Under the pieces are notes generated by a model that worked only from the letters and a program-made list of their open reading frames with translations, did no database searches and was not told the origin of the DNA. 64,000 nt of DNA. It comes from Planctomycetota bacterium. Its GTDB lineage: Bacteria; Planctomycetota; UBA8108; UBA1146. Below, one piece after another: positions 9,093 through 63,700 of the stretch; the stretch's first letter is position 1, and each line of letters starts with the position of its first letter. The translations under genes were made by a program, and so were the position numbers. The DNA lies in the NCBI GenBank assembly GCA_002711105.1, contig PAIH01000044.1, positions 33,658-97,657 on the forward strand, written 5' to 3'.

Positions 9093-12000
9093 TTACGGAC
9101 ATCCTCCATAAGTTTCGCAATCAAGACCATCCCCAGGAGTCATGTCGATTCCGCAGGTAATCGGTCCCGGAGCCGGTGGAGGGCCACCGTTCTGGAACTG
9201 GTAGTTCAGCACATAGATGATATCCGATATGTCATGCAAGCCATCGTCATTGGCATCTATTGCATCCGTGCAACCCGATGCAGGACCGCCAAGCATGAGG
9301 CTGTAAAGCATGAAGATCGCATCTGCAATATCCACACTTCCGTCGTCATTAGCATCACCACGGCGGAAACTCGGCTCACACTCATCCGGTAATCCATTTG
9401 CATTGGTATCAAGGCTCTCGCCACTTAGCAGATCACATGCATCTGGTACACCGTTATCATTGCAATCGGGACTAGTGCCGGTAGAAACGTCGCACACATC
9501 TGGTGTCCCGTTCTCGTCACAGTCGGGATCACACTCGTCAGGCGTTCCGTTCCCATCACAATCGGCAGAGGAACCTTCTGCGATATCACAGACATCTGGA
9601 TTTCCATTGCCGTTACAGTCATCTTGCGGAACAACAATCGTCACCGTCTGTTCGACAACCGTCGTGTTACCGTGATTATCAGTAGCGGTCCACTGTAGAA
9701 TCGTACTTCCATGATCATAGGTACCGCTCGCATCGTCCGTTCCATTGAGATCGTTGTATAGATCCACTACCACGCAGTTGTCGCTGGCATTCGGAGTCGG
9801 AATATTGAGTGTTGCAGTACAAGTACCCTCTGGAGCAGGAATCGTCAGATTTCCACTTGTCGTGATGGTCGGGGATTCATTATCAGAAACCGAAACCAGG
9901 AACTGAGCTGAAACTACGTTTCCGTTCGCATCTGACTGCGAGTAACTCACCGTAGTTGTTCCTACCGGGAAGAACTCGCCAGGCTGATGGCTGGTTATCA
10001 GTTCGCCAAGATCGCAGTTATCGGTGGCAGTTGGCGGATTCCAGTTAACACTAGCGCCACACACACCTGGATCGGTCAGCTGTGACAAATCACCCGGTAT
10101 ACCTTCAAGAACTGGATCTTCACTGTCAATTACAGTCACGATGAAGGTGTGCTGACTGAGGTTTCCATGCGCATCAGACAAGGACATGGTCACAAATGTA
10201 GTTCCGACGTTGAAGAATTCTCCTGGCTCATGGCTTGTTGTCAGGTTTGTCGTTCCACAGTTATCACTGACCTGTGCCGGTTCCCAAGTTGCGGTGGCAC
10301 CACAATCTCCAAGTCCTGACGCCATCGTCATACTTTCTGGCGCCAGGTCGAAGCTTGGTGCCTGATCATCACTCACGGTTATCGTGAACGAAGCTGTGGT
10401 CTCATTTCTTGAATCATCTGTAACGGTATAAGATACCGTAGTTGTACCAACAGGGAAAAACTCACCGGCTGAATGGGTGCTGGTAGTGCTGCTGGCTGGG
10501 CAGTTGTCTGCACTTGACGGCTCGGGCCAGCTAACTGTTGCCCCACACAAATCTGGCTCACTGGTAATCGAAATATCATCTGGCATGCCAAACAACTGAG
10601 GTGCTTCCATGTCAGTGACAGAAATCGAGAACTGGTGGCTTGCAGAGTTACCGTTAATATCTTGCAACGTCATCGTGACGACCGTCGTGCCAACGGGGAA
10701 CTGCATGCCAGACGGATAATCAGATCCGAGAGAAAGCACACCGCAGTTGTCACTGGTCTGCGGTGCATCCCAGACTGCGGTAGCAACACATTGTGCCGCA
10801 TTTGTATCGAGCTCCATGTCTCCAGGACTGGTAACAAAGCTAGGGGCTTCATCATCTGAGATGGAAATCTCAAAGGAACTGCTGACTGTAAGACCGTTTA
10901 TATCGGTGGCTGTGTACGTCACCGTTGTGTTACCCACCGAGAAGAAACTTCCTGACGGGTGACTGGTGAAGAGACTTGGACTCGGGCAGTTATCAGTGGT
11001 AGTGGGCGCGGTCCATTCGATGACCGCTCCACAAGCACCTGAATCGGCAGTCTGAGTGACCGAGGCAGGCATATCGTGAATCTGGGGTGCCTGCTCGTCT
11101 GTCACCGTAATACCAAATTCGTGGACCGTCGCCTGACCGTGAATGTCGGCTACAGTCATCGACACCGTGGTAGTTCCCAGCTGGAAGAAATCTCCCGACT
11201 GATGGCTGGAAGTCAGAGATTGAACCGCGCAGTTATCAGAAGTAACTGGGGCCTCCCAGCTCGCCGTTGAACCACACAGATCAGGATCAGTCCCTAGCTG
11301 CTGTGATTGCGGAGAGCTTTCAAACAACGGCGCTTCGTCATCTGTCACGGTAATCGTGAAGGAACCCAGTACTGTATTGTCGCTGGTATCTTCTACTGTG
11401 TATGTGACAAGAGTTTCTCCGACATCAAAGAAATCTCCTGGTTGATGGGTGCTGCTCAGGAGCTCTCCAGCGCAATTGTCTGTAGTAGTCGGAGGCGACC
11501 ACGTTACGCCAGCTCCACAAAGTCCAAGATCAGCAGTCTGGTTAATTCTTCCAGGCATATTGACCAGCTGTGGATTCTCGACGTCACTTACCGTCACGGA
11601 AAATGTATGGGTCGTGACGTTGTTATGGACGTCAGTCAAAGTCAACAGAACATCAGTTGTGCCTGTCGAGAAGAAATCGCCACTATTGTGTGACGTCTCG
11701 ATGGAAAGAACTCCACAGTTATCACTTGTGTTAGGTGCTTCCCAGCTAGCCTGGGCTCCGCACTGACCAGGATCTGAACCCATGGCCATACTTTCAGGAG
11801 CAGTGAGAAACTCTGGGTTTTGATCGTCAAGGACCGTTACCGTGAATGAATCTGCAGTCGTATGACCACTCAGATCTGTACTCGTGTAGGTAACAGTAGT
11901 ATCGCCCATTGCCAACAAGCTACCGCTGGCAATATCTGATCCGAAGGAAGTGACTCCGCAGTTGTCTGCTGAAGTGGGCTCCTCCCAGGTTGCAGTTGCT

Positions 12001-14885: not shown

Positions 14886-17800
14886 TTATGGGCAAGCGTT
14901 GTAGAGCGCGCACCCCAGGCCATCAGAATCGGTCGGATCCACTCCACAACTATCGAAAGGTGGTGGAGGTGGACTCGTACCGTTGAACTGGAAACCGAGG
15001 ATGCTGATCACGTCAGAAACGTCGACAGTGCCATCGTCATTGGCATCTGCTGCGTCGTCGCAACTAGGATCGAGTCCTCCAGCAAAGAGGTTCACCAACA
15101 AGAAGACACCATCTGCAATGTTGACGATGCCATCGCCATTGCCATCACCTCTATAGAAGTTTACCTGACAAGAATCGGGGATTCCGTCACCATCGAGATC
15201 AGTGGCGGCTCCGCTCACCAAATCACATGCATCCGGGATTCCATTACTGTTGCAATCGTCAGCGATACCCTCAGAAATCTCGCACAAATCTGGAATGCTA
15301 TTCACATTGCAATCAGACAGTGTCCCATCAAGAAGATCGCAACTGTCTGGCACTTCGTTCTCATTACAATCATTGGCAACACCAGTAGAGATCTCGCAAC
15401 TATCTGGAACACCTGTACCGTTACAATCTTGCTCGACACCCAGATCGATTTCACAGCTGTCAATATCACCATCAAGATCACAATCAGCCCATGTGCCAGA
15501 AGCGATATCACAGGAGTCGGGAACACCATTCAAGTTGCAATCATTGGCAGTTCCAGTGAAGACTTCGCAGCTATCTGGCACTCCAGTGCCATCGCAATCA
15601 TCCTCTAGCCCGCTGGCAAGGTCGCAAGCGTCTGGGATTCCGTTGTTATTGCAATCAGCCACTTGGCCGTTACCAACGTCGCAGTTGTCAGGCACACCGT
15701 TTCCGTCACAATCGGAAGTACCATTACTGATGTCACAGGAATCGGGAATACCGTTGCTGTTGCAATCCGGAACGGCACCGGTTGAAACCTCGCAACTATC
15801 AGGAACCCCTGAGCTATTGCAATCTTCAGCGACACCATCTATCAAATCGCACGAATCTGGAATCCCGTTGCTATTGCAGTCAGGAGCAGCACCACTGGAA
15901 ATCTCACAGCTATCCGGCACTCCATTGGCGTCGCAATCAGAAGCAGTACCAGCTTCCAAATCACAGACATCGAGTGTTCCGTTAGCGTTGCAATCAGAAG
16001 AAACACCTGTCGCCAGGTCACATGTATCAAGTACCTGATTCTGGTTACAGTCAGTGTCCTGTCCTGTTGCGAGATCGCAATCGTCGAGGATCCCGTTAGA
16101 GTTACAATCCACTTCAGTGCCTGAAATCAACTCACAGGAATCAATGACTCCATCCAAATCGCAGTCTGTCGCACTACCTGCCGAAATCTGGCAGCTATCG
16201 ACAAACCCATCGAAATCGCAATCCAGTTCAACTCCTGATTCGATATCACAGCTATCAGGCTGGCCATTAGCATTGCAATCGAGGACTACCCCGGCGGATA
16301 TCTCACAAGAATCTGGAATTCCGCTCAGGTCGCAGTCTGTTTCAGTGCCCGAGGCAATTTCGCAACCGTCTAAGATTCCATCGCTGTCACAGTCCGCCTC
16401 TGTTCCATTGTTGATTTCGCAACTATCCGGCAGACCATCTTCATCGCAGTCAAGAGAACTACCTTGTTCGATTTCGCAATCGTTAGGTATCCCATCTCCG
16501 TCGCAATCTGGCTGACACTCATCAGGCACACCGTCCAAATTACAATCGAGACTGTTGCCTTCGACGATGTCGCAGACGTCAGGATTGTTATTGTTATTGC
16601 AGTCTGGAGAATCAATCAGAACGGTAACGATTCCAGCTGTGAATGACAAATTCCCGTTGGTATCGGTTGCAGTCCAGTTGATTAACGTATTTCCGCGAGG
16701 GTAGAAACCGGAAGCATTCGCAGTACCGTTGAAGTCATTTACGACTGTCACCTCTCCGCATGCATCAGTTGTTTCCAGTTCTGGAACCTCTACTAAAGCA
16801 CCGCATTCTCCCGCTGGAGCAGTTACAGTTAATGGCAGGGGTGGTGTGATCGTTGCACTTTCATCATCAATAACTGTGACATTGAAAGATTCGGACACAC
16901 TGTTTCCACTGATATCTATAGCAACGTATGTAACGAGAGTGGTTCCTACAGTGAAGAAGGATCCGGAATCATGACTCGACTCAAAACTTGCCAAACCACA
17001 ACCATCTATGCCTGTGGGTTCAAGCCAAGTAATACTCGCACCACAAATCCCAGCTTGTGTCGTGTAGGTAAGATCTGTCGGCAATCCCACTATCTGAGGA
17101 TCTTCATCATCTAGCACTGTAATTTGGAAAGAAGACGTGACTTGATTATCTGAACTGTCAGTGGCCACCACAATGACTGTTGTAGTTCCCACTCCATATT
17201 CCATTCCGGAATAGAAACTTGTCACAAGCTGGGCAACTTCACAATTGTCTGTAGCAGTTGGGAATTCCCAGTTCACTGCAGCAGCGCAATGTCCCGGGGG
17301 TGCAGTGACGATTTGATCCTCGGGTATTGAGGTGATGATCGGAAGTTCTGTATCCAGAACCGTGACCACGAAGCCAGAGGTCGTATCATTCCCAGAAGTA
17401 TCAGATGCGGTGTAGACGACTTCAGTAGCTCCTGCAGGGAAGAACTCACCCGAGCTGTGAGTTGAACTGAATGTAACCGTACCACAGGCATCCTCGATGG
17501 TCGGATCTTCCCAGGTCACCACGGCTCCACATTGGGAACTCGTGTTGTCGAGCTCGATGAAAGCTGGCAAACCGGAGATCTCCGGACCTTGAACATCAGC
17601 TACGTCGATATCGAATGAGTAAACGGCTTCGTTACCTGAGGTATCCGATACCAGATAGCTCACAGTGGTTACACCTACCGGGAAGAAATCTCCACTAGAG
17701 TGTGTTTGTGTAACTTCAGCTACTTCACAGTTATCGATGGATTCAGGTGCTCCCCATGTTGCAACAGCACCGCATTGGTCTTGAGCAGAACCAATTTCTA

Positions 17801-29809: not shown

Positions 29810-32800
29810 TTAGGGACAGATGGAGTAAGAATCGCAACCGATGCTTACACCGTCCGGGTCGAGTCCACAGAAGCCGTAAGGATCTGCAGGTGGCGCACTA
29901 GCCAAGAACAGGTGCTGCAGTAGGTAAATTACATCACTGATGTCTAGACTCTCGTCATCATTGCAGTCTCCGGTGTCGAGGCAGCTCAGTTCTGGACCGA
30001 TTCCGACAACGTACTCAAGGATGTAAATCGGATCGGTAAGGTCTACGTTTCCAGTGCCATTTGCATCTCCACGTCGGAAAGGCTGCTCGCACTCATCTGG
30101 CGTGCCATTACTGTTCGTATCTGCGCTTCCTCCGGAGGTGATGTCACAATCGTCCGGAGTGCCATTGCCATTGCAATCGGCTTCGCATTCATCAGGTATT
30201 CCATTCATGTTGCAATCGTTAGCTGCACCACTGGCAATCTCACAAATGTCTGGCTGGCCATTCTCATTGCAATCGGTCTCGTCAACGACGACCGTCACAG
30301 ATTGCGTTGTAGTGGCTTCATTTCCGTAAACATCAGTAACGATCCAGGTAATGACAGTCGTACCAAGATCGTATGTGCCAGAGGCATCTGAAGTACCTGT
30401 GTAATCATTGGTCACCGAACCAACTTGACAGTTATCTGCCGTTGCAGGTGCCGGAATATCAAGCTCGGAATTACACGTTTCTGAGGTAGCCACGACCGTG
30501 ATATCCCCGGAGCTCTCAATTGTTGGATCTTCTTCGTCAAGTACAGTGACATTGAAAGAGCTGGTGACACTATTTCCGGAAGCATCCGTCACTGTTATCT
30601 GCACTTCCGTACTGCCAACCTCGAACGAATCTCCAGAGTCATGAGTCAAATCTAGACTCTCTCCGGGACAGTTGTCTTCGGAGCTAGGCGCAAGCCATTC
30701 GACCGAAGCAGCACACTGACCAGGATCATTGTTTGTGGTGATGTTCGCTGGAACAGCAAGGATCTGTGGAAGCTCAGAGTCCTGAACGGAAATTGTAAAG
30801 CCACCAACGGCTTTGTTTCCGTACTGATCAACCGCAGTAATTGTTACAGTAGTCGTTCCAATCGGGAATGCAGATCCTGAGGAATGACTACTCTGCAAAT
30901 CGACAGTATCGCAATTGTCCTGTGCACTCGGCAAAGCCCAATCGACCGTTGCTTCGCACTGTCCCTGATCATTCGAAACTGAAACATTTTCCGGAATGTT
31001 GAGTAACTCTGGATCCTCATTGTCCATAACAGTTACTTCGAAGGAAGCGATCGTACGATTCCCCGCAGTGTCAGTTGCTGCGAAAGTTACCGGAGTGGTT
31101 CCTACAGGGAAGTAAGTTCCTGGTACGTGGGTTTCCTCGAAGACCAAGATCGCACAATTGTCTGTGGAGGTAGCTTGCTGCCATGTAACTAAGGCACCGC
31201 AAACTCCAGGATCGTTGGACACGGTGATGTTAGCGGGCACATCCAGGATTACTGGATATTCTTCATCCACCACGACAACGGTGAAACTACCGCTTGTATC
31301 GTTACCGTGGATATCGACGCTGGTGTACGTCACGTCTGTCGATCCAACTGCGAAGGTGTCGCCAGGAAGATGGGTAGACGTCATTTCAGAAACACCACAG
31401 TTATCAGTCGACGTCGGATCATCCCAGAGAGCAGTAGCCGAACAGAAGCCAAGTTCTGAACTGTACATGAGATCGCCAGGTAGATCGTGAATCATCGGGT
31501 TTTCTGCGTCAGTGATTGTGATTGTGAAGGATTCCGTGGCCAAGTTTCCATGGATGTCGGTCGTGGTCAGGGTCACTTCTGTGGTACCAACTGCGAAGAA
31601 ACCTCCGCTGCTGTGAGTTGTTTCCGTCGACTGGATGCCGCAGTTGTCAATAGTTGTCGGCTCAGTCCATGTCACGATCGCACCGCAATGACTTTCATCG
31701 TTTTGTTGATCCATATCAGCAGGCGTGCCGATGATTTGAGGAAGTTCTTGATCTTCAACCGTGACGATGAAGCTATCGCTGTGTGAGTTTCCATGGATGT
31801 CGGTCGCTGTGTACGTCACGACTGTCTCACCGACTGGAAGGGCTGTACCACTTGCAACAGTGGATATAAGTGTGTCCACTGCACAGTTGTCACTTGTAAG
31901 TGGATCGTCCCAGTTGGCAATTCCCTCGCAAAGACCAGGCTCTGTCGGAATCGTGATTCGTTCCGGCAAATCGATGATCTGTGGAGCTTCTACATCCGTA
32001 ACAGTGACGGAGAACGCAACGGTCGTCGTATTACCGTACAGATCAGCGGTGCTGTAGCTCACATCCGTGGTCCCAACCGGGAAAGAATCTCCTGGCTGAT
32101 GTGTAGCAGTACTGTCCTGAATACCACAATTATCGGTGATTGCAGGGTCGTCCCACATTGCTGTCGCTGTACAGACACCAGGCTCCGTGTTGTACGTGAG
32201 CCCATCCGGAAGACCAGCGATGACTGGATTTTCAGTATCTTCGATCGTCACCACGAAAGCCGCCGAGGTGGTGTTTCCGTGTATATCTGTAGCAATCAAC
32301 ATCACCGCAGTGGTTCCTACATCAAAGAAATCTCCACTGGAATGACTCATTTCGAATGTGTCGATCCCGCAGTTATCTTCAGCTGAAGGTGCTGCCCACG
32401 TTGTGATGGCGCCACATTCTCCAGCATCATTTTGTGAAGTTACATCAGCTGGAATATCGAGTATCTGTGGCGATTCTTGATCAACAACTTCAATGATGAA
32501 CAGCTCTGTTGTCTGGTTATCGTGAATATCCGTAGCGGTAACAGTGACAGTTGTCTCACCTACGGGGAATTGAACTCCTGAGCTATGGCTCAAAGTAATG
32601 CTAGAAACTGCGCAGTTATCCGTTGCTATCGGATCATCCCAAGAAACTGACGCGCTACAGAGTCCTGATTCACTGGAAGAGGTGACGCGCTCCGGAAGAT
32701 CTACAAACACTGGGTTCTCATCATCTGTGATAGTGATGAGGAAGTTATCTGAGGTAACATTTCCATGAATGTCGCTCGTAGTGTAAGTAACCAGGGTCTC

Positions 32801-50690: not shown

Positions 50691-52013
50691 CTAGTCGCCA
50701 ATCGGTTCCGAGGTGGTAGAGGCCACCTCAAGAGGGAGACGTACCGTCATGACCTGGGTTCCACCTTTTACCCCCGTGGCGGTCCACGCCACGACCACAG
50801 CTCCCTTCGATATCGCTACGAGCCTCGGATAGCCACTACTTCTACCAGAAGAGATCTGGGCAATCCGATGTGAGGAACCCAGAGGTTTTCCAGGTATCCA
50901 GCGTCGGACTCGCACTGCTGCGCCCTCTCCCTCTCGTTCAATCCAGCACACCACATAAGAACCGTCGGTAAGGCCTGCCAGATCCACGCGACCTATCGGT
51001 CGCCCGTCATCAAGACGCTGGGGTTTCGACGATTCTGTCACGGAACTATCCGACATGAGCATCCCCAGCACCGCTCCCTGCGGCGAAGGCTTGCCCAGCA
51101 CCCGCTCAGCCCCAGTGAACCAAACAACTGCACTACTACCGGCAGCGCGGGCAATCGCAGGGCCATTAACAGGACACCCTTCCTGTACCCAGTCATCCTC
51201 GTGAACCAAACCGCGAGCGGAGATCTCGCCATCCGAATCTTTCAGCCAAGAGATGTCGCGAACTTCGAGAAAATCTCGATCCCGATATACCAGCAATACT
51301 TGCTTTTCATCGACAACAACGTCAAGCGGACAGCAATCGCATACCCGGTCATCGAGCAACCGATCCGTTCCCCTGTTGCCATCTGCTTCAATAACCGTTG
51401 CTCGTAAAGTCATCGCTTTTCCCGAATTACCAGCCATCGCCCGACCATCTAGCCAGGCGAGATAAAACTGATCGCCCATCGACCGTAGTGCTACAAAGCC
51501 ATGTTCTGTTGGAGAGGTATCCCTGTGAGGAATGATCGGGTCACCCCAGGTTCTGCCTCGATCACGAGATATGCTGACCTTGACCCCGTATGAATAGGTC
51601 TCGGCAGAGATCCGGTCTAGCCAGTGAACAGCTATGGTTCCATCGTCAAGCACCGCAGCCGAAGGAAAGTCTGCCCAGTTCACGAACCACCCTTTCCCCT
51701 GCGCTGCGGTCAGTGGCTCACTCCAACCATTCTGCTCCAACATGGCGATCTGAAGGCGATCCCCCTTGCCGCCAGGAACCGGTTCTACCCACGAAAGCAG
51801 TGCTTGACCGGCAGCATCTACGGTCAGATTAGGGAGTGCAGATCCAGGTAATGCAGAAACCCTCAGAGGTTCGACATTCAATGAAACTTCATCGCGCTTG
51901 GTCGCCTCATCGTCGAGGGCCCAAAGCAACGGTTCCTTGGCGACAAATCCGCCAAGGAGAAGCACAAGAAACACAAGAAGCTTTGATCGATTAATAACCT
52001 GCTGCATGACCAT
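50691..52013 (-). CDS. Secreted BNR/Asp-box (sialidase-like beta-propeller) protein
   Basis: Asp-box 'SRDRGRTW' (SxDxGxTW) and a signal peptide 'LLVFLVLLLGG'. Confidence 0.6.
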   Translation of the reverse strand: MVMQQVINRSKLLVFLVLLLGGFVAKEPLLWALDDEATKRDEVSLNVEPLRVSALPGSALPNLTVDAAGQALLSWVEPVPGGKGDRLQIAMLEQNGWSEPLTAAQGKGWFVNWADFPSAAVLDDGTIAVHWLDRISAETYSYGVKVSISRDRGRTWGDPIIPHRDTSPTEHGFVALRSMGDQFYLAWLDGRAMAGNSGKAMTLRATVIEADGNRGTDRLLDDRVCDCCPLDVVVDEKQVLLVYRDRDFLEVRDISWLKDSDGEISARGLVHEDDWVQEGCPVNGPAIARAAGSSAVVWFTGAERVLGKPSPQGAVLGMLMSDSSVTESSKPQRLDDGRPIGRVDLAGLTDGSYVVCWIEREGEGAAVRVRRWIPGKPLGSSHRIAQISSGRSSGYPRLVAISKGAVVVAWTATGVKGGTQVMTVRLPLEVASTTSEPIGD

Positions 52014-53697
52014 CTTTTCTCGATTCGCTGGCACCAACCCACACTCCTTTTTCCGCATCCTTCATCACAGCTTGATATCCACCGAAGAGGCCCTTGCGAC
52101 TTCCAATTCGATGACCACGTTTTCGAAGTTCCTCGATCACCGCAGGAAGGAATCCTGATTCTAGAGCCACTTCCCCACCATCCTCCATGATGGAACCGGT
52201 CGGTTGAGAAGATCCCACGTGAACTACCCGTGGAGCATCGCCGGCTTCCTGTAGGTTCATTCCAAAATCGATGATGTTCATCAAAACCCACACCTGCGCC
52301 TGCGGCTGAGTCGCCCCCCCCATGACGCCAAAGGAAAGCCATGGTTCTCCAGCTCGAGTGACAAAGCCCGGGATGATGGTGTGGAAAGGCCGTTTGCCAG
52401 GAGCATAAACATTGGCGTGGCCATCCTCGAGGCAGAATAATTCGCCCCGGTCTTGCAAACCAAATCCGAGACCTGTCGGACAAACTCCACTGCCGATGCC
52501 ACGGTAGTTGCTCTGGATCAACGACACCATGTTGCCAGCAGAATCTGCCACTGAGAGATAAACCGTATCGCCGCGCTCGGTCTGGGGTCTTCCCGTGTCG
52601 ATTCTCTTCATCGCTTTGGCGGCATCGATCTTGTCGCGCATTTGATTGCCGTGTTCTTTGGAAATCAGCCGCTCCATCGGAACATCGTGAAAATCCATAT
52701 CGGCGTAATCTCGCGCACGATCTTCAAAGACAAGCTTCTTGGCCTCGATGAAGTGATGAAGGAGATCAGCACTGCCAAACCCCCACTGCTTGACTGGATA
52801 TCCTTCCATGATGTTCAGTAGTTCCAGCACTGCGATCCCCTGGCCATTGGGTGGTAGCTGCCACACTTCCACACCACGATAGCTGGTACTCACTGGATCG
52901 ATCCACTCACCCCGATGGGAGGCAAGATCTTCCACTGTGATGTAACCGCCGTGTTTCTGGATGAAGGAAGCGATCTGCTCTGCCACTCGATGCTCGTAGA
53001 ATCCGGAACGACCGTTGGCAGCGATCTCAGACAGAGTGCTGGCGAGGTTGGGGTTCTTCCACAACTCTCCCACGCCAGGCGCCTTGCCATCTGTAGTAAA
53101 AGTCTCACGAAACCCAGGTTGCTCCCCAAGCACCCGGGCACTGATCTGCCAATAATGAGCAATCAATTCGGTAACGGGAAAGCCTTCTCGGGCATGTCGG
53201 ATGGCAGGTGCCAGAACCTGATCGAGAGTTAGAGATCCAAACCGCTCGTGCAATTGGACCCAACCATCGACACAACCCGGAACTGAGATGGGAAGGGTTC
53301 CATGAGGGGGTATCTCCTTTTTCCCCAGAGCTTTAACCTCCTCGCGGAGTTTCTCCAACGAGAGCGAACGAGGAGATCGTCCAGAACCGTTAAATCCATG
53401 TAACTTCTTTTCCTTGGCATCCCAGACGATGGCAAACAAATCTCCTCCGATGCCATTGCCGGTCGGCTCCATCAACCCGAGGCATGCGTTGGCTGCAATA
53501 GCAGCGTCGACTGCACTACCTCCCGCCCTGAGGATTTCCAGAGCTGCTTCAGTAGCCAGGGGATGACTGGTAGCGGCCATGCCGTGGACGGCATAGACCT
53601 CTGAACGGGTCGCAAATGAACGACCGGTGATGCGATCTCCTCCGGAGATTCTCGCTGATATGCTCAATACCAAGAGGAACAGCACCAGGAATTTCAT
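51991..53697 (-). CDS. ggt: Gamma-glutamyltransferase
   Basis: 'GGDLFAIVWD' and the autoprocessing region 'GDTVYLSVADSAGNMVSLIQSN'. I chose the ATG at 53697, which gives the signal peptide 'MKFLVLFLLVLSISA'. Confidence 0.9.
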   Translation of the reverse strand: MKFLVLFLLVLSISARISGGDRITGRSFATRSEVYAVHGMAATSHPLATEAALEILRAGGSAVDAAIAANACLGLMEPTGNGIGGDLFAIVWDAKEKKLHGFNGSGRSPRSLSLEKLREEVKALGKKEIPPHGTLPISVPGCVDGWVQLHERFGSLTLDQVLAPAIRHAREGFPVTELIAHYWQISARVLGEQPGFRETFTTDGKAPGVGELWKNPNLASTLSEIAANGRSGFYEHRVAEQIASFIQKHGGYITVEDLASHRGEWIDPVSTSYRGVEVWQLPPNGQGIAVLELLNIMEGYPVKQWGFGSADLLHHFIEAKKLVFEDRARDYADMDFHDVPMERLISKEHGNQMRDKIDAAKAMKRIDTGRPQTERGDTVYLSVADSAGNMVSLIQSNYRGIGSGVCPTGLGFGLQDRGELFCLEDGHANVYAPGKRPFHTIIPGFVTRAGEPWLSFGVMGGATQPQAQVWVLMNIIDFGMNLQEAGDAPRVVHVGSSQPTGSIMEDGGEVALESGFLPAVIEELRKRGHRIGSRKGLFGGYQAVMKDAEKGVWVGASESRKDGHAAGY

Positions 53698-53904
53698 TTT
53701 CGCGTTTCTCCCGTCTGATCTTTTATGCCCAGGGTGAGACATCCTAATGGTGATAGAAGGAACACGAAAGCGAGGGAACCCGATACTCCCAGAGAGGTAT
53801 TGGCACTCAGCAGCAGAAATATGCCGCTGCAAGAGCGTCAACAGTGGTTCAATCTCCAGCGGTGGCTTATTCTCCCTGTCACCAAACCGCTAGCAGGAGC
53901 TGTA

Positions 53905-55188
53905 ATGTCAAACGATAACAACCAGAAGCTCTTTCAAGAGGCTTGCCAGATCATTCCAGGCGGAGTGAATAGTCCTGTACGCGCTTTTGGTTCTGTCGGA
54001 GGAACTCCCCGCTTTATCTCAAGGGCTGAAGGCTGTCGGATTTTCGATACGGAGGGACAGGAATACATCGACTTTGTCGGTTCCTGGGGCCCGATGATCC
54101 TCGGTCATGCACACCCTCCGATCCTCGATGCCATCGCGAGGACACTGAAGAATGGAACCTCTTTCGGAGCCCCAACGGCGGCAGAAACAGAACTCGCTTC
54201 TCTGATCATTGAAATGGTTCCTTCTGCACAGATGGTGCGGCTCGTTTCCAGTGGAACCGAGGCAACGATGTCAGCTCTCAGGTTGGCACGCGGCATCACC
54301 GGGAGAGATCTCTGTATCAAGTTCGAGGGTTGCTATCACGGACATGGAGATTCATTCCTGGTCGCCGCAGGATCAGGGGCGGCTACTCACGGTCATCCGT
54401 CGAGCCCAGGGGTTCCCGCCAGTACCGCCGATTTGACCGCGGTCATCCCCTACAACGATGTGGAAGCGGTGCGAACCCTGATGGCCGCCAACGGCGATCA
54501 GGTGGCGGCCATCATCGTCGAACCGATCGCCGGCAACATGGGCTGCGTTTTGCCAGTACCAGGTTTCCTGGAACAGCTGCGGGAACTCTGCACTCAACAC
54601 GGATCATTACTGATCTTCGATGAAGTGATGACCGGTTTCCGGGTCCACGCGGGGGGAGCTCAAAGCTTACTGGGGATCGATCCTGATCTGACCACTCTGG
54701 GTAAAATCGTCGGAGGAGGCATGCCGATGGGTGTCATCTGTGGATCGAGGGAAGTCATGGAGAACTTCTCCCCCACAGGCTCCGTGTACCAGGCCGGTAC
54801 CTTGAGTGGAAATCCCCTCTCGGTGGCCGCGGGAATCGCCTTGCTGACAGAATTGCGGGACCGGGCAGACGAAATCTATCCGGCACTGGAAGCCAAGGGC
54901 CAGCAATTGCAAGAAGGGTGGCAACAAGCGCTCGATCGACACGGTATCGCCCACTGCTGGAATCGGGCTGGATCGATGTTCGGTCTCTTCTTCACAGAAG
55001 GCCCAGTCAACAACTTCAGCGACGCTTCTGGGGCCGACGAGCAGCTGTTCCGCCGCTTCTTCCACGGCATGTTGGCGGCGGGAGTTGCTATCGCCCCCTC
55101 CCCTTACGAAGCAGGATTTTTGTCGATGGCTCATTCTGCCCAGGACATCGATCACAGCACCACAGTCATCGAAAACCTTTCCCTCTAG
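53905..55188 (+). CDS. hemL: Glutamate-1-semialdehyde 2,1-aminomutase
   Basis: 'IIPGGVNSPVRAF' signature. I chose the ATG at 53905 ('MSNDNNQKLF'). Confidence 0.95.
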   Translation: MSNDNNQKLFQEACQIIPGGVNSPVRAFGSVGGTPRFISRAEGCRIFDTEGQEYIDFVGSWGPMILGHAHPPILDAIARTLKNGTSFGAPTAAETELASLIIEMVPSAQMVRLVSSGTEATMSALRLARGITGRDLCIKFEGCYHGHGDSFLVAAGSGAATHGHPSSPGVPASTADLTAVIPYNDVEAVRTLMAANGDQVAAIIVEPIAGNMGCVLPVPGFLEQLRELCTQHGSLLIFDEVMTGFRVHAGGAQSLLGIDPDLTTLGKIVGGGMPMGVICGSREVMENFSPTGSVYQAGTLSGNPLSVAAGIALLTELRDRADEIYPALEAKGQQLQEGWQQALDRHGIAHCWNRAGSMFGLFFTEGPVNNFSDASGADEQLFRRFFHGMLAAGVAIAPSPYEAGFLSMAHSAQDIDHSTTVIENLSL

Positions 55189-55195
55189 TGGAGAC

Positions 55196-55233
55196 AAAAA
55201 AGAGCCCCTCGACCTTATCGATCGAGGGGCTCT
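55196..55233 (-). terminator. 12-bp hairpin between convergent hemL and P5, with a U tract on the minus strand
   Basis: agagcccctcga (55201-55212) pairs with tcgaggggctct (55222-55233). The A-run 55196-55200 reads as U's for the minus-strand transcript. Confidence 0.8.
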
Positions 55234-55258
55234 TGAAGTTACAGAGTAACTTTAAACT

Positions 55259-56509
55259 CTAAATGTCGTCTGCATCTCCGTCACAACCTAGACCATCGCC
55301 ATTGGTTGGATCGAGATCGGCAACCGGGAACGGAGCCAGCGGCGCAGCCCCTTCGAGGAAGCGGTAGTTGAAGATGTAGATCATGTCGGACGAATCGATC
55401 GCCCCATCATCGTTGCTATCGCAAGCATCGTCGCATGTCGGATCGGGACCACCCTGGAACAGGAAGTTGAGCCCGAATACACCGTCCGCGATGTTGACGA
55501 TGGCGTCATTGTTGCAGTCACTACGCAGGAATACGTTGTAGTTCACCACACTCACTGATCCGTGGACCAGAGTCGGTTGAGCCTGAGTGGTCTGCCCGGT
55601 AACGACTTTGTTGTCCTGTGGAGGAGTTCCGATTCCATCAGTCCACGTAATGGCACTTGTGCCTTCAGCAGCCGAGTCCCAACCAAGTGAAACGAGATCA
55701 GTCTGAGCTCCCGCTGGAATCAGGTTATCCAGAGGAGGTGTTTGGTCCGCAATCATTCCCATGACGATTTCGCCAGCAAGAATACCACCTGTCTGAACCA
55801 GGAAGACCTCGGCGGCGAATATGGCGTCCACGCCTGTGTTCGTGATAATCGCAGAATCGTAGACAACGTTCATCTGAACGGCATCCACTGCCGGCATGGT
55901 GACGTTATTAAGACTCAGAGTACTAGCAGCACTACCACCAAGGATCGTACCCACGTCGTCTGCGATTAGCTGGTTCGGGTTGATCACATTGACACATCCG
56001 CCACTCATAGCAGGAACAACGCTGGCACCATCATACACGACAACTGCAGAAACGGGAGGCGCCCCGAGAGTGCTGCAGTATTCTGCGCAACTGGTAGTAG
56101 CACCAACTATGTCGTACGTCACATCAAGCATTCCGAAACCAACCGTACCTGCAGGAAGAACGACGATGCCGAAGAAGTCGAGGACGATTCCCTGGGTTGG
56201 GCCCCCGGCATAGATACTGATCGCCGAAAAACCGCCGGTACCCATTAACAAATCCGTATCAGCGTGATCTTGCGCATCAATGACCGTCAGATCTGCAGGA
56301 TCAGTGCAGGATCCGAAAGACCAGCCCTGAAGATCTCCGCCAGGGTTATCCAGCAGGCAAGTCAATACGACTGTATCGCCTGGTGATCCCGAGGCATCAG
56401 TCATCGAATAGCTAAAATCTGAACCACCACCAGCATTCGCCGTGACGGCAACCGCCAGGAAAACGGTCAAGACCACAAACCCTGTCATGAATTTACGAAG
56501 CATTTGCAT
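55259..56509 (-). CDS. Secreted protein P5 (~416 aa): two cohesin-like modules plus a dockerin-like C-terminal module
   Basis: The ATG at 56509 has GAAAGGA upstream. Signal peptide 'MQMLRKFMTGFVVLTVFLAVAVTANA'. 'SGSPGDTVVLTCLLDNPGGDLQGWSFG' and 'VQMNVVYDSAIIT' resemble cohesin strands. Confidence 0.75.
   Translation of the reverse strand: MQMLRKFMTGFVVLTVFLAVAVTANAGGGSDFSYSMTDASGSPGDTVVLTCLLDNPGGDLQGWSFGSCTDPADLTVIDAQDHADTDLLMGTGGFSAISIYAGGPTQGIVLDFFGIVVLPAGTVGFGMLDVTYDIVGATTSCAEYCSTLGAPPVSAVVVYDGASVVPAMSGGCVNVINPNQLIADDVGTILGGSAASTLSLNNVTMPAVDAVQMNVVYDSAIITNTGVDAIFAAEVFLVQTGGILAGEIVMGMIADQTPPLDNLIPAGAQTDLVSLGWDSAAEGTSAITWTDGIGTPPQDNKVVTGQTTQAQPTLVHGSVSVVNYNVFLRSDCNNDAIVNIADGVFGLNFLFQGGPDPTCDDACDSNDDGAIDSSDMIYIFNYRFLEGAAPLAPFPVADLDPTNGDGLGCDGDADDI
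55262..55534 (-). other. Dockerin-like C-terminal module of P5 (lacks the terminal C-x-x-Y-x-x-C-P)
   Basis: 'DCNNDAIVNIAD' and 'DSNDDGAIDSSD' loops. Ends in 'GLGCDGDADDI'. Confidence 0.65.
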
Positions 56510-57263
56510 CGTTCCTTTCGCTGTCGCTCCAGGGCATCGACCAGACACCCGTTGCACACCCCATGTTTTTTCTTAGACACACCTCAGTAATACCTTGATC
56601 TTTGATTTTCAGACACCAACGCCCAAAAACTACACGATCAAAAGCACTCTCTCGGACCCAATAACAGACCCGACATGTCTCCACAAAAATCAAATCTCAG
56701 ACGACAGATCACACCCGTCGTGCCCGAACTAAATGCAAGGACCACGATTGACCGGACAAAGATGAGAAAACGGTGTGCACGCAAAGAACAAAGAACAGTT
56801 CACAGCGCACACCATTCCACCTCCTCGGAGCTCGACACCACAGTTATCGCCAAAGCGAAGGGCGGAACTCCACGGTCAACGTCGCAGAAGAAAGCAAGAG
56901 GAAGGAAAAACCGGATCCCAGGAGGGGACCGATGGAAACCTACACAATTATCTTTGTCCTACAAGAGCCCAAGCTCCATCGAGTATATCGACTTATCGGT
57001 CCATGCCAAGTAGCGAGCCCTATGACTGACATGACTTAAATCTGGATCAAGACTCTGGATTCTATTCATGAGGACGACCACGACTCCGTAAACCCCGACC
57101 CATCCGGAAAGGAGTGAGGAGTGAGGAGCAAACCAGGCCTTGGCTCACGAGTAAGCCATGGCCGTTCTCGCAAATAGTGGATAATGCGGAAGTTGGGGCA
57201 AAGGAAACTGAGCCCCTCCATGTCCACTACCCACTTCGATGTAAACGTTGAAGACTCCCCATG

Positions 57264-60200
57264 TCAATCATTCTTACTGCATACAAACTCGAGCAGATCG
57301 CGTAATTCATCCCCACTGAGAATCCAGTGAATCTCCGGCATCGCAGAAATACCGTTGTCGGTCTCATAACCCTCCAGAATCACGGCAGAGGGGTCGACCA
57401 GGCTCTGTAACATCTCCTCGCGTGACCTGCTGTCGACAAGATTATCCAGGGGCGGACCGGCGACTCCGCCTCTTCCTTGACGTGAATGACACCTCTGACA
57501 CTGGCCCACGGGGTGGTCGACGAAGATTTCTCGTCCTCGATCTCGATTTCCACCGGCCAACGCCCAGCGATGATCGGCGAGCCGGTCTATCCCTTCCCCC
57601 TCCTGGATCCTGGCAGCGCGATTTTTGAGCTGCTCCGAATCGCTCATGCTTGCGGCGATCAGTACATCCAGATGCAACTCAGCCTCGAGATCATCCTTCT
57701 CGAGCGCATCGAGCCATGCTGTGAGAAGCGCTGTCGCCGAGGTCTCCCTCTCGGCTCCGATTGCCCGAATCGCCAACTGGCGAATCTCCATCTCGTTGGC
57801 ATCAGTGGTCAATTGTTCCAGTTTTTGCACCCGAACGCTCTGGTCCTCCTCGAATCGCTCCGCCTCGACACGAAGTTCCGCAATCCCTGCAGATCGAGAT
57901 CGATCTAGAGCAATTCCTGCACGTTCAGGATAATGCTCGACGATCTGGCGCAGAGCCTGGATTCTGAATGAGGTCTGTTGTGAAGCGTCGGCAAGGATTG
58001 TCTCGTTGACCGACAGGGGAAGATCAATGCCGTGAACGCTGGCAGCCTGTTGAGCAACGCCCGCCAGGTGATTTCCCTTTTGAATCAAATCCAGCAATGG
58101 GGCGGATATCTCGGATCGAATCGCCTCCGAACTTCTTGACGGTCCACCGTAGGGACGAATCGTACCCCTGACGAGGTCTCTCGGTCCTGGTTCTACCCAG
58201 TTGAGCACTGCCTCGATCGCCAGTCTCCCTGCCTTTCTCGGAATGTCATCGCGACCAGCAAGACTAACCAACGCAGCGGCATGCCTCGTATCTCCATGGC
58301 GCAAGGCCGCGTCAATCACTCTCCTCAGATAAGGAAGTCGATGATCTCTCATCGATTCCAATGCTCCTTTTGGAGCTCCGGCGTGAAACAAAACACGGTC
58401 CGCAAGAGCTGGCATCGCACCCAGCACATGGAGATCGTGAATGGCACGTGCCGCCTCAGTGGCGATCTGAGCATCCTCGTCCGCCAGAAATATCGAGATC
58501 ACCGGATGCACACCGGGAGACCTACGCCCAATGTCTCCACCTGGATGAGCAAAGAGAAAACCAGGGTGATGTTTCTTGCGTAACGCCAGCAAGACAGCGA
58601 GACGTACTTCTCGATTGTCAGACGTCGCATAATTCATCAGATCCCCAAGCCTCGCCGATCCGGCAAGACCCATCACCGCAGCATGGCGGAGCAAAGGATC
58701 GGTTGGGCCCTCATCACGGGCCATTTCCATCAACCGATCGGTGGCATCTCGAACTCCGATTCGACCGAGAGCGAGTGCGGCATGGAACTTGACCCTGGCT
58801 GCAGGATCATCGAGCAATCGCACTAACCGAGAACTCGACTGCCAGTGCCGAAGATCACCCAGTACCCGGGCTACCTGAGTTCGCACCTCCTCCTCATCGT
58901 CATCGCAAAGGCTTGCCAGCGAGAGAAGCTGCTGGAAACGGTCTTCGCCGCCACGAACCCATTGCCCCACCCCCCAGATGCCATGCAAACGTGCTTGTAA
59001 GCTGACCCCGTTTCGAGCGGCCTCGTTCAACACCGATAGCTCTTCTTCACCTCCAGCGGCAAGATGGAACTGTATTCGCTGCCGGACTCTCCGATCTGGA
59101 TGGCCCAAAAGACTGGCGAGTTGCTGTGCAGACAGCGACTTCAACTCGATGGTGAGCCAGTGACCGACCCGATGTTGCTGATTGGTTAGCTGGCTTTCCG
59201 GATGCCAGACCTCGATCAGACGTCCTCGATCTGTCGAAACCCAGCCTCCACCCCAGGCAGAGATCCACATCTTGCCATCGGGAGTGAAATCGACGTCGGT
59301 ACAGAGCACCTTGTTAACGAACACCTCCGGATCCGCCAATCGGAATCCTGCTCCTTGTTCCTCAAGGCGGAATCTCCAAACCGATGAACTGCCGGGGCTA
59401 CCACGAAAATCACAGAGGAAGAAACTATCGCGGAATTGTTCCGGTAGCCCGGTTCCCGGGTAATGAACAAAACCAGAAGGGCCACTGGTCAGGTGAGCAA
59501 TGGGAGCCAGAGACCAAACCGGCTGAACGGGGTGATCGAGTTGCCAGATCCCCTCCTGATTCCAGGGGCCTCGCTGGTTGGAACCTTCCAGCGTCTGGTA
59601 CTCCATCCTCCAACCGGTTTCTCCGCCCCACACGATCTGAACCAGGCGTGCTCTGTCGCCTGCATCCGAATTGTTGTCCCCGGTGAATAGATCTCCCTTG
59701 TTATCGAAAGCCAGTTCCTGCGGGTTGCGAAGTCCGACGTGGACCACCTCAAGATCACTCCCGTCCGGTTCACAACGAAACACAGCACCAGCACCAGGAT
59801 CAGCGAGTAAGCGTCCATCGGAAGTTACCAGATGATAACCACGATCTCCGATCGACCAGTAAATGCGACCATCGGGGCCCCGAACCACACCGTGCATATC
59901 GTGACCACGAAGGGCAATTCGAACGCCAAATCCTCTTTGAAACGAAACCTGTTGATCGGCGACACCGTCATCGTCCTTGTCGTGGGCCAACCACATATCC
60001 GGGATATTGGAAATCCACGCACGACCCTCCTCGATAAGAACTCCTGCCAGAGTGCCATCGAGTGGCTGATTGTAGGGTGGAGTGAACAAATTCCTCGCGT
60101 CCAGGATGCCATCTCCATCGCTATCGATGAGACGGGTCAGTCGATCATCATGAGCTGTGTAATAATTCATACCACCCTGTCGACGATCCTTGTGCTTCTC

Positions 60201-60712: not shown

Positions 60713-63700
60713 TCAGGGGCAACTCTGATAACTATCGCAATCAAGACCATCTGGAGTCGGATCTACTCCACAGGAGCCCCAAGGGGCTGCAGGTGGTGGG
60801 CCGCTCAGGAACAGGGCGGTGAAGTGGTAGATCGCATCCGCAATCTGCACCTGGCCATCGTCGTTCTCGTCGAGAGCATCCATACACGTGGGTTCAGCTG
60901 CTCCTGAGAAGATGTATCCAAGTATGTAGATCGCATCCGAAATGTCGTAGACACCGTCGTCATTGGTATCGCCCCTGAGGAACGAAGCCTGACATTCTTC
61001 CACGGTGACGGTGAAGAACTCGGTCGTGGTGTTTCCTGCTTCGTCGATAGCAGTCACCTCGATATCGGTGGAACCGACGAGGAACGTCGAGCCAGAGGGT
61101 AACGATGTAGTGATCGAACCTCCTGGGCAGTTATCGATGAAGTCCGGCTCAAGCCAGGTCGCCACTGCTGTACATCCTCCGGGATCTGGTACCAGATTAA
61201 TCGGAGCAGGTAGATTCACGATTTGTGGGTCCTCGCCATCGAAGACAACAACAACTAACTCGTGAGTGGTTGCGTTCTCATTTACATCCACAGCGATATA
61301 GAGAACCGTACTCTCTCCAACCGGGAAGAAGCTACCCGGAGGTGTGTTGGCCTGGACGGTATCGATCTCGCAGTTATCTGTGATGACAGGGTCAGACCAG
61401 AAGGCATTGGCTCCACACTGTCCCGGGTAACTGGGAACCTCGATCAAATGCGGCAGTCCACTGATGACTGGACCGTCTTTATCGACCACATTGACGTTGA
61501 AACTGGCACTGGAAACATTGCCGTAGACGTCGGTCGCCGTGTAGGTAACCAGGGTATCCCCGGCTTCAAAGAAAGAACCGCTCGACATCGAGGCTGCCAA
61601 ACTGGCCAGGTCGCTACAATCAGTTGCGCTGGGCTCGTCCCAGGCGACCACCGCGCCACAAAGAGCGACGTCGTTGGTCAGCACCATGTCAGCTGGCATA
61701 TCCGAGATCAGTGGCGGCTCTATATCCAGAACAGTCACAGTAAAGAAGGATTCGGCAATGTTGTTCTGGATATCGATAGCTGTATACACAATGACGTGAA
61801 TACCTATCGGGATCTCACTCCCTGGCTCGATGGTTGTAGTTACGATTACTTCCGTGCAATCCGTTACCGTGGGTGGTGTCCAGCTCACAGGTATCGTGCA
61901 GCTCCCAAGCGGAGCCTCGACGGTGATGTCGCCAGGCATATCCGAGATCACCGGTGTATCTCCATCGAGCATGTTGATCAGGGTGATATAACTCGCTTCG
62001 TTTCCGGCATCATCGGTTGCAGTATGAATCACATCAGTGGCACCAATCGGGAAGACCGTGCCGGACTCATGACTGCTCGTTGACGTCGCACCACCACAAA
62101 GGTCCGCTGGTATCGGCGGATTCCAAGTCGCCACTCCATCGCACTGACCAGGAGTCGTGTAGAAGATCAACTCAGACGGCAGATTAACGAAGAAAGGCGC
62201 TTCGGCATCTTGGATGGTCACTTCGAAACTGGATTCGGAGATGTTCCCGGCAATATCTTCTGCAGTATAAGTCACCAGCTGGGTACCGATTGGGAACACA
62301 TTTCCACTTGAATAATTAGAGGTCAAGGTCACCTCGGAACAGTCCTCTACTTGTGGAGTTTCCCAGGTGGCAATCCCCGCACAGTTCCCCTCGATATTGT
62401 CGAAGAAAAGGTTTTCAGGAGTTCCCAGGATGACCGGAGCTCCCACATCGACCACCGTAACCGTAAAGCCGACTGTGGAGATGTTGCCACTACCATCGGT
62501 CGCGGTGTAAATCACCGTTGTCTCACCTATGGGGAATTCGGATCCGCTCGGAAGACTCGGAACCAAAGTCAAGATCCCGGAACAATCGTTCGCAGTAGGT
62601 TCGGCCCAGCTCGCCACTCCCACACATGTTCCCGGATTAGAATTGACCTGGATCGGCGGTGGAAGTTGGGAAATCAGAGGCGACTCTTGGTCAAGTACGG
62701 TGACCGTGAAACTGGCTGTTCCAACATTTCCACTCGGATCGGTCGCCGAGTATGTCACCACATTCTCACCTATGGTGAAGGAATCCCCACTGACTGAGCT
62801 ACTAGTGAGTTCGAAAGAAACGCAATCTGTTGCTGTGGGTTCCGACCATGAAGCCGTAGCTTCACAGGAACCTTCCGGTGCCACCACTTCGCTGTCCGCC
62901 GGCATATTGAACAGTACCGGAGCTTCCACATCCTGAACCGTAACGAGGAAACTGGCGGTATTCTGGTTTCCTTCGCTATCGGTAGCGGTGTAAGTCACTG
63001 TCGTTGTTCCAATGAAGAACTCGCTGCCACTGGGATGATCCACTATCAGCTCACTGAAAACACAGTCAGCAGAAGTAGCTTCAGACCAAATCACAGCGAC
63101 ACTGCAACTTCCAGCACCGTTATCAACGGTGATATCAGCTGGAACTCCGAGAATCTGTGGAATTTCTCCGTCTACCACAGTGATCAAGAAGTTAGCTGCT
63201 GACGAGTTACCGTACTCATCGGTGAATGTGTAGGTGGCTATGTGATTACCTATCGGAAGAAGTGATCCATTTTGGATGTCGCTGGAGGGAGTGACCAAAC
63301 TGCAGTCGGAAGTGCTTGGTTCGGTCCAGCTGACGCTGACTTCACAAGAATCAGTCGGTGTAGAAATCTGGATGTTCGATGGCATCTGCAGAATCGACGG
63401 TGGAGTCGTATCCATGACAGTAACCGTGAAACTTGCAAAAACTGGATTCTGAGCATCGTCAGTGGCCGTATAGGTCACCACGGTATCGCCAACCGGGAAC
63501 AGATCCCCGGGTTGATGGGTCGAAGAGACCACCAGTTCGGCTGTACAGATGTCGCTGAAGGTAGGAGCATCCCATGTTGCTGGAAGTTCACAATCTCCTG
63601 CTGGGTTCGCGATGACAATCGGCGATGCAGGTGCCGTAACCACGGTTGGATCTTCTTGGTCGATGACCGTGACCGTGAAGGTTCTTGAATCAACGTTCCC

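Follow-up and report, generated by a model that had tools for sequence, protein, structure and literature searches.

Two predicted cohesin modules and a dockerin on one secreted protein suggest an adaptor scaffoldin in a marine Planctomycetota bacterium

Cohesins and dockerins are the parts that clip cellulosomes together, and their pairs, which are among the strongest non-covalent protein connectors, are understood almost only from the cellulosomes of anaerobic Firmicutes. The question raised by a 64,000-nt stretch of a Planctomycetota bacterium genome (hereafter the window; assembly GCA_002711105.1, contig PAIH01000044.1, positions 33,658 to 97,657) is whether such connectors are also used there. 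The window encodes four giant proteins, P1 to P4, and a smaller protein, P5, which a sequence-only reading had proposed as a scaffoldin with two cohesin-like modules fused to the same dockerin-like tail as the giants. The assignment of two predicted cohesins and a predicted dockerin to P5 by profile searches and structural modelling is, in our judgment, almost certain. Since the two cohesins and the dockerin lie on one secreted chain, P5 has the cohesin-cohesin-dockerin (Coh-Coh-Doc) architecture of an adaptor scaffoldin. It is somewhat probable, on the grounds of sequence and model, that P5 is a Sec-secreted, non-catalytic, non-cellulosomal adaptor, which would link tail-bearing proteins through predicted cohesin-dockerin contacts. 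The coordinates of all features are listed in Table 1.

Residues of P5 are numbered on the 416-aa product of the ATG start. An alternative GTG start at 56557, 48 nt upstream of the ATG, would yield 432 aa; the ATG was favoured because a Shine-Dalgarno-like site precedes it (Table 1) and because the homologues of P5 are 410-417 aa in length. The module ranges proposed earlier, 46-190 and 200-345, fit the longer numbering, and in the 416-aa numbering they become approximately 30-178 and 179-324, between a signal peptide at 1-26 and a tail at 325-416. The strings by which the modules had been recognized were all present in P5, namely SGSPGDTVVLTCLLDNPGGDLQGWSFG (40-66), DLTVID (72-77), MLDVTYDIVG (127-136), and GGCVNVIN (170-177), together with GGSAASTLSLNNVTMPAVDAVQMNVVYDSAIITNTG (191-226) and VHGSVSVVN (315-323).

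Single-sequence searches of P5 against Pfam, NCBIfam, and PDB (phmmer) gave sub-threshold matches to cohesins and dockerins only. Pfam Cohesin (PF00963) matched residues 197-229 with 14.6 bits (E 0.038), below its gathering threshold of 24.1, and Pfam Dockerin_1 (PF00404) matched with 17.5 bits (E 0.0047), below its gathering threshold of 22.9. No NCBIfam family was matched, and no other Pfam or NCBIfam domain was found in P5, while the PDB search detected the dockerin 2y3n_B with an E-value of 0.001. Orthologue profiles and structure prediction were therefore needed to settle the domains.

The internal repeat of P5 is beyond chance because the Smith-Waterman score of module 1 against module 2 was 65, whereas 500 shuffles gave 33.4 +/- 5.9 and none of them reached 65. 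Comparison of the two module profiles, each from 45 orthologues, by hhalign gave a probability of 99.2% with an E-value of 1.3e-19 over 137 columns at 19% identity. Pfam Cohesin was matched at E<=0.01 by 26 of the 45 orthologues (best 1.7e-8). When the profile of the 45 orthologues was searched against all PDB sequences, 21 chains were listed at E<=10, all of which were cohesins or dockerins. Module 2 (profile positions 177-294) matched the ScaB cohesins of Acetivibrio cellulolyticus, with 3l8q_A at an E-value of 3.1e-8 and 1qzn, 3f2l, 1zv9, and 3bwz at about 1e-5. Module 1 matched the ScaC cohesin 5lxv_A of Ruminococcus flavefaciens with an E-value of 2.4e-5 in the full-length orthologue profile, and the same cohesin was the sole match at E<=1 (E 0.0012) of a profile restricted to module 1.

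The AlphaFold2 model of P5, built from the orthologue alignment, had a mean predicted local distance difference test (pLDDT) score of 88.8 and a predicted template modelling score (pTM) of 0.64, and consisted of two all-beta modules (33-175 and 180-322) followed by three helices. The first Foldseek match of this model in PDB was the type II cohesin dyad 3l8q (E 4.5e-13), and the next were CipA fragments of the type Coh-X-Doc. Single cohesins were superposed with target-normalized template modelling (TM) scores of 0.75-0.81 and root-mean-square deviations (rmsd) of 2.2-2.8 Å, values that refer to the two modules without distinction; among them, 6kge_A, 5nrm_A, 2vn5_A, and 3ul4_A gave 0.79-0.81 and 2.3-2.8 Å. 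The non-cellulosomal cohesin 2xdh of Archaeoglobus fulgidus was also among the matches. The identity of P5 to the matched ScaB/ScaC-type cohesins was only 12-19%, and the two all-beta modules of the model agree with the nine-stranded beta jelly-roll of ~140-150 residues that characterizes the cohesin fold. Both intermodule spacings, from cohesin 1 to cohesin 2 and from cohesin 2 to the dockerin, are 3-4 residues, with essentially no linker before the dockerin. The two cohesin-like modules of the sequence-only reading were thus borne out by the orthologues, by profile comparison, and by the comparison of the model with known cohesin folds.

The C-terminal part of P5 showed the features of a dockerin. 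The orthologue profile matched 2y3n_B in PDB with an E-value of 2.3e-4, and 29 of the 45 orthologues matched Dockerin_1 (best 1.3e-6). Two predicted Ca2+-binding loops, DCNNDAIVNIAD and DSNDDGAIDSSD, were located in the tail, and the model places helices at 340-351, 360-363, and 373-384 after the two loops. Among the orthologues, N333, D335, and D342 of loop 1 are invariant or nearly so; in loop 2, D364 and D375 are invariant and N366, D367, and D368 nearly invariant.

The tails of the giants have the same plan. A hidden Markov model (HMM) of the tail, searched against the six-frame translation of the window, detected exactly five open reading frames (ORFs), the four giants and P5, with E-values of 1e-43 to 1e-49. 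Each of the five tails comprises two 12-residue loops with ligands D1, N3, D5, D/N/Q9, and D12, a helix after each loop, and a loop spacing of 21 residues; the sole ligand exception is a T at position 5 of loop 1 in P3. In the whole-protein scan of the giants, Dockerin_1 gave no match at E<=0.01. The best PDB matches of the tail profile were the dockerins 2mte_A and 1daq_A (both 7.6e-6) and 2y3n_B (1e-5), ahead of generic EF-hand proteins. The AlphaFold2 model of the last 110 residues of P4 had a pLDDT of 88.4, and its top 30 Foldseek matches in PDB were all dockerins (TM 0.65-0.84, rmsd 1.7-2.4 Å, probability 0.96-1.0), with E-values of only 0.014-0.2 because the domain is small.

Past the second helix, the tail continues for another 30-32 residues, which in the giants follow the pattern PPxxP...CGxDP...C..Y..CP. 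This extension is rich in Cys and Pro, conserved, and modelled with a pLDDT of 92-94, and the giants share four nearly invariant cysteines in it. It is not part of canonical dockerins and is not seen in solved dockerins. Since it exceeds the ~60-70-residue size of a dockerin, the tail represents an extended dockerin variant. The tail of P5 had been described as the same as those of the giants. It is indeed a homologous dockerin, but its identity to the giants' tails is 42-52%, and two of their four conserved cysteines, those of CGxDP and of the terminal CP, are missing. P5 instead has C332, at position 2 of loop 1, and C363, and the set C332, C359, C363, and C409 is nearly invariant in its orthologues. 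The identity values and the differing cysteine pattern indicate that the P5 tail belongs to a distinct conserved subtype. In cellulosomes, differing dockerin subtypes usually mean differing cohesin specificity. By analogy, the distinct subtype would fit an adaptor whose dockerin seeks another cohesin than those P5 itself offers.

P5 carries a Sec-type signal peptide, as proposed earlier, which ends in VTANA followed by GG and was modelled as a helix (4-24) with low pLDDT. The cleavage site was placed provisionally by the A-x-A rule, and the sequence of the signal peptide contains no lipobox cysteine. A terminator-like hairpin lies 25 nt past the stop codon, inside the 70-bp convergent gap to hemL; it is plausible on account of its stem length and position only, as such sites are no more numerous in the region than expected from shuffled sequence. 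Upstream of P5 lie ~750 bp of non-coding DNA (56510-57263), in which one promoter-like site was found, no more than shuffled sequence yields. The Rfam scan of the whole window, this region included, gave no match, and the plus-strand ORFs listed within it look spurious. With the hairpin on the 3' side and the non-coding DNA on the 5' side, P5 appears to be a monocistronic gene with its own transcription unit.

If P5 acts as an adaptor, its cohesins would capture the dockerin tails of other proteins secreted by the same organism in a Ca2+-dependent manner; to our knowledge, every characterized cohesin-dockerin pair depends on Ca2+. The P5 dockerin, of its own subtype, would plug P5 into a cohesin on another protein, so that each P5 could serve as a branching connector with two inputs and one output. 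The likeliest candidate cargo of the P5 cohesins would be the giants with HYR and FG-GAP domains, the syntenic P4 first, and the resulting network may display or cross-link these giant adhesin-like proteins outside the cell. The four giants in the 64-kb window provide dockerin-bearing candidate partners in the same genome, as expected for a scaffoldin. Among the five dockerins and two cohesins of the window, the cohesins are found in P5 only. The scan for HYR and FG-GAP domains took in P1, P3, and P4.

Homologues of P5 were numerous in related genomes. A total of 59 was found, ~47 of them full length, all from metagenome-assembled genomes (MAGs) of Planctomycetota or from metagenomes and all unnamed or "hypothetical"; identical P5 proteins occur on contigs of Tara Oceans and other marine assemblies. 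In the scan of GTDB species genomes, the closest relative had 62% identity, and the good matches were marine-type Planctomycetota MAGs (e.g., UBA1146, TMED53, and MCMED-G47), with a few records under other phylum labels. A clear orthologue was present at 19 loci, the window included. Upstream sequence of 5 kb or more was available for 18 of these loci, and in 15 of the 18 a tail-bearing HYR giant ends ~4 kb upstream of the P5 orthologue, which agrees with the co-occurrence expected from the sequence-only reading.

In addition, paralogous Coh-Doc loci with 30-36% identity to P5 were detected in at least 13 of the 15 MAGs that have a P5 orthologue. Many of them are arrays of 5-9 genes in tandem on one strand, and each gene codes for a signal peptide, 1-3 cohesins, and the tail (nine genes in L053; seven or eight in L035, L048, and L068). 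A phmmer search with the cohesin region only yielded 387 clusters at 50% identity (138 at E<=1e-10), whose lengths peak near 270, 430, and 600 aa, fitting one, two, or three cohesins plus the tail. P5 is thus a conserved single-copy member of a lineage-specific Coh(1-3)-Doc family of marine Planctomycetota, and the joint expansion of cohesins and dockerins in the same MAGs supports its reading as an adaptor. On the other hand, the dozens of paralogous cohesins per genome mean that P5 is not the sole candidate partner of the giants' tails. Of the earlier scaffoldin proposal, the architecture is supported, and the binding of the P1-P4 tails by P5 is a prediction.

The tail also occurs on varied proteins. 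The database search with the tail profile detected 415 proteins, and the best 120 of the 415 were mostly 80-170-aa fragments from short contigs. Tail carriers without cohesins include an NHL-repeat protein, a Rhs/YD-type protein, and secreted 90-165-aa proteins consisting of nearly the tail only. Four secreted proteins of 118-165 aa (P0081, P0074, P0076, and P0162) have a signal peptide and little beyond the dockerin-like tail, and one of them is named in its source record as "dockerin type I domain-containing protein", the sole such name in these searches. The fetched loci contained 271 distinct tails: 264 stand at the extreme C-terminus and four at the N-terminus, and the other three have ~140 further residues after them. 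Since the dockerin can be N-terminal and occurs on unrelated cargo, it behaves as an interaction module rather than as a C-terminal sorting signal. The possibility that the tail is a PEP-CTERM- or sortase-type sorting signal was considered and rejected, as the tail has no hydrophobic end, has a full dockerin fold, and is N-terminal in four proteins.

Several observations weigh against P5 as the adaptor of the giants. P5 on its own stayed under both Pfam gathering thresholds, and it has no visible anchor. Its neighbours in the window are housekeeping genes, and none for secretion or anchoring was found among them. The upstream giant is absent at the three loci with the most distant orthologues (L001, L002, and L016; ~49% identity), and two of these, L001 and L002, visibly retain hemL and ggt beside the P5 orthologue. 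The linkage of P5 and the giant may therefore be plain synteny, with hemL and ggt conserved to the same degree; co-occurrence is weak evidence of functional coupling, since synteny extends equally to the housekeeping genes on the flanks. Finally, the giants' tails could in truth pair with the paralogous cohesins.

Three other explanations were weighed against the adaptor. The P5 dockerin might bind the cohesins of P5 or of close paralogues on neighbouring molecules, while the giants' tails bind elsewhere; P5 would then be a structural subunit of a fibre, sheath, matrix, or similar polymer, either head-to-tail or branched, and not a scaffold for the giants. Such homotypic assembly would agree with the composition of the family, in which each member has cohesins and a dockerin and usually no further domain, with the tandem arrays of 5-9 paralogues, which look more like polymer subunits than like a scaffoldin with separate enzyme cargo, and with the near absence of linkers, which suggests a rigid building block. 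We nevertheless consider it unlikely, since many tail proteins without cohesins (the giants and the NHL, Rhs-type, and stand-alone proteins) need a receptor, and two P5 cohesins per dockerin leave spare sites. The shared chain of cohesins and dockerin could also permit the P5 dockerin to clasp cohesin 1 of the same molecule, so that the protein would be closed and have no role in assembly, and the domain arrangement of the whole-chain model is moderately defined (pTM as above). The short intermodule spacing would, for steric reasons, leave little freedom for such a clasp, which would moreover leave the tail-only proteins unexplained, and we regard it as highly improbable.

The remaining explanation dispenses with binding between the two modules. 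The tail could be a Ca2+-stabilized module that serves envelope attachment or export and not cohesin binding, the cohesin-like modules could bind a non-protein ligand or be structural, and the link between P5 and the giants would be a shared localization tag only. The predominance of tails at the extreme C-terminus resembles that of sorting or anchoring domains, and the conserved, confidently modelled Cys/Pro extension of ~30 residues is foreign to canonical dockerins. For most non-cellulosomal dockerins, we know of no demonstrated partner, which also counts in its favour. However, the tail lacks both a hydrophobic or transmembrane end and any known sorting motif, is placed N-terminally in at least four proteins, and is predicted to fold as a complete dockerin, both Ca loops included; furthermore, cohesins and dockerins have co-expanded in shared genomes and on shared proteins, and no linked secretion genes were found in the window. 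An attachment module without cohesin binding is accordingly quite unlikely in our estimate.

The adaptor reading of P5 can be compared with systems already described. Similarly to the adaptor scaffoldins ScaC and ScaA of R. flavefaciens and ScaB of A. cellulolyticus, P5 is predicted to be secreted and non-catalytic, with cohesins and a C-terminal dockerin, and its best matches among solved structures are adaptor-scaffoldin cohesins (ScaB 3l8q and ScaC 5lxv), the best structural match being the ScaB dyad. Unlike these proteins, P5 belongs to a marine planctomycete and not to an anaerobic cellulolytic Firmicute, lacks a carbohydrate-binding module (CBM), an X module, and Pro/Thr-rich linkers, and has a dockerin with conserved cysteines and a 30-residue C-terminal extension; its candidate cargo is HYR/FG-GAP giants and not glycoside hydrolases. 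As no CBM or glycoside hydrolase was found among the tail-bearing HYR/FG-GAP giants of the window, P5 is not a cellulosomal scaffoldin. The A. fulgidus cohesin (2xdh) and the NagH/NagJ complexes of Clostridium perfringens (2ozn and 2w1n), which appeared among the Foldseek matches of the P5 and tail models, are cohesin-dockerin pairs unrelated to cellulose breakdown, as is proposed for P5; in contrast to the P5 lineage, these systems have no Cys-rich dockerin extension. The A. fulgidus cohesin protein also carries a dockerin, and we know of no reported arrays of Coh(n)-Doc paralogues in A. fulgidus or C. perfringens. A 2009 paper by Peer et al. reportedly deals with non-cellulosomal cohesins and dockerins.

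A planctomycete cohesin-dockerin complex with an HYR domain has already been published as a hypothesis. This "planctosome" was proposed for freshwater Nemodlikiaceae as a non-cellulolytic assembly, in which, according to the available description, an adaptor carries a dockerin, an HYR domain, and a cohesin on one chain, a proposal derived purely by prediction from sequence and structure (Andrei et al. 2019, ISME J, PMC6461901); the hypothesis is cited again in PMC11840708. By that description, the likeness lies in the dockerin-tailed HYR giants beside cohesins in a Planctomycetota genome (PMC6461901). The window differs from the planctosome, as described there, in that HYR domains and cohesins are on separate proteins (HYR and dockerin on the giants, cohesins and dockerin on P5), in that it shows no LTD anchor and no dockerin-bearing M12/M14 peptidase, and in its marine lineage, and tandem Coh(1-3)-Doc arrays are not mentioned in the available description (PMC6461901).

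In related MAGs, M4 and trypsin-like proteases carry one or more cohesins and the tail (L076 and L060). A ~1700-aa lipoprotein-like protein with weak matches to the cohesin HMM and a Pfam Dockerin_1 match (E 2e-4) lies at the array end in L035, and it is also the last array gene in L028, L029, L030, L034, L036, L048, and L057. Its sequence makes it a weak candidate for an anchor that would hold the network to the membrane. Pfam scans of five array proteins turned up no LTD domain, and no wider LTD search was made. What is new in comparison with the planctosome is an unannotated marine family, an extended dockerin of disulfide type, HYR giants apart from pure Coh-Doc connectors, and paralogue arrays.

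Table 1. Features of P5, of the giants and neighbouring genes in the window, and of paralogous and tail-bearing proteins in related loci
Feature	Coordinates	Strand	Description	Basis
P5 coding sequence	55259..56509	minus	416 aa + stop; signal peptide, cohesin 1, cohesin 2, dockerin	ORF list, homologue lengths, AlphaFold2 model
Shine-Dalgarno-like AAAGGA	56513..56518	minus	AGGA core 4-7 nt upstream of P5 ATG at 56509	read from sequence
P5 predicted Sec-type signal peptide	56432..56509	minus	residues 1-26, MQMLRKFMTGFVVLTVFLAVAVTANA followed by GG	sequence
P5 predicted cohesin module 1	55976..56422	minus	residues 30-178; conserved QGWSFG-C strand, C68 and C145	profile, hhalign, model
P5 predicted cohesin module 2	55538..55975	minus	residues 179-324	orthologue profile, Pfam Cohesin in orthologues
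P5 predicted dockerin and C-terminal extension	55262..55537	minus	residues 325-416	Pfam, PDB, orthologues, model
P5 predicted Ca2+ loop 1	55484..55519	minus	residues 331-342, DCNNDAIVNIAD; ligands D1, N3, D5, N9, D12	
P5 predicted Ca2+ loop 2	55385..55420	minus	residues 364-375, DSNDDGAIDSSD; ligands D1, N3, D5, D9, D12	
Intrinsic-terminator-like hairpin	55200..55234	minus	15-bp stem, 9 G-C pairs, then T run	consensus scan
P1 dockerin tail	9096..9395	minus	giant P1 9093-14465, 1790 aa, 10 HYR and FG-GAP	
P2 dockerin tail	14889..15188	minus	giant P2 14886-29687, 4933 aa	
P3 dockerin tail	29813..30112	minus	giant P3 29810-38545, 2911 aa, 24 HYR and FG-GAP	
P4 dockerin tail	60716..61015	minus	HYR giant P4 60713-63973+, 5' end beyond window, 12 HYR	tail HMM E 1e-48
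PVC-type haem-binding CxxCH protein	57264-60578	minus	1104 aa	TIGR02604, 133 bits, above cutoff
Haem biosynthesis cluster	39206-45796	minus	hemA (GlutR), hemC, hemD, hemB (ALAD), hemE (URO-D), amine-oxidase-type gene	
hemL	53725-55188	plus	convergent to P5	
Paralogue arrays	L053:479-16673; L035:871-16027; L068:8414-21605; also L052, L028		related Planctomycetota MAG loci	
M4 thermolysin-type metalloprotease with cohesin and tail	L076:86-4393			
Trypsin-like protease with two cohesins and tail	L060:3609-7547			
Rhs/YD-type protein	L074:9668-15832		2055 aa, N-terminal dockerin module	
1009-aa protein	L073:9746-12772		N-terminal dockerin module	
~1700-aa protein at array end	L035:10931-16027		lipoprotein-type signal (...AFAMSGC), Big_5, FG-GAP, TIG	

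The sequence-only reading had placed P5 in a second locus, separated from P4 by one gene. This gene encodes the CxxCH protein, which additionally contains HEAT repeats and, at its C-terminus, a cytochrome c-like domain, and it holds the same position in most orthologue loci. The idea of a dedicated locus was not sustained, as the genes that separate P1-P3 from P5 encode haem biosynthesis, PEPCK, a HAD hydrolase, a molybdopterin oxidoreductase, GGT, and hemL; on the same grounds, a dedicated operon or secretion system around P5 was rejected. A near-complete haem cluster and hemL lie between the two groups of giant genes, and the amine-oxidase-type gene of the cluster is probably protoporphyrinogen oxidase. 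The listed TTG start of the GGT ORF (51991-53841, minus strand) overlaps the hemL ORF on the opposite strand (from 53725), and translation more likely begins at a downstream Met, after which comes a signal-peptide-like stretch (MKFLVLFLLVLSISA). In P1-P3, tandem short Cys-rich repeats of the form DCNxNGxPDxC(D/E) occur after the signal peptide and again right before the dockerin tail. The tail starts with a conserved F-x-R-G-D sequence, and the D of this RGD tripeptide is the first Ca2+ ligand.

At the level of the lineage, a broader picture can be drawn only tentatively, and we hold it to be possible but doubtful. The marine Planctomycetota may have a self-assembling, branched scaffold outside the cell, made of Coh(1-3)-Doc proteins only (P5 and the arrays of 5-9 paralogues), in which each subunit would dock through a disulfide-braced extended dockerin and present one to three further cohesins, with a large lipoprotein as tether. 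Such a scaffold would display HYR/FG-GAP adhesins, proteases, and Rhs-type toxins, and might serve as a surface matrix for particle attachment or antagonism and not for polysaccharide digestion.

In summary, members of the P5 family, currently annotated as hypothetical proteins only, point to a joint expansion of cohesins and dockerins in abundant, uncultured marine Planctomycetota, on giant adhesin-like proteins instead of cellulases. If the predicted binding is true, protein engineering would gain further, orthogonal cohesin-dockerin pairs, and the hypothetical planctosome would gain a testable footing through small modules of ~150 and ~100 residues. Such binding would also provide a concrete molecular model of how very large surface proteins are organized in these bacteria, for example in attachment to particles.

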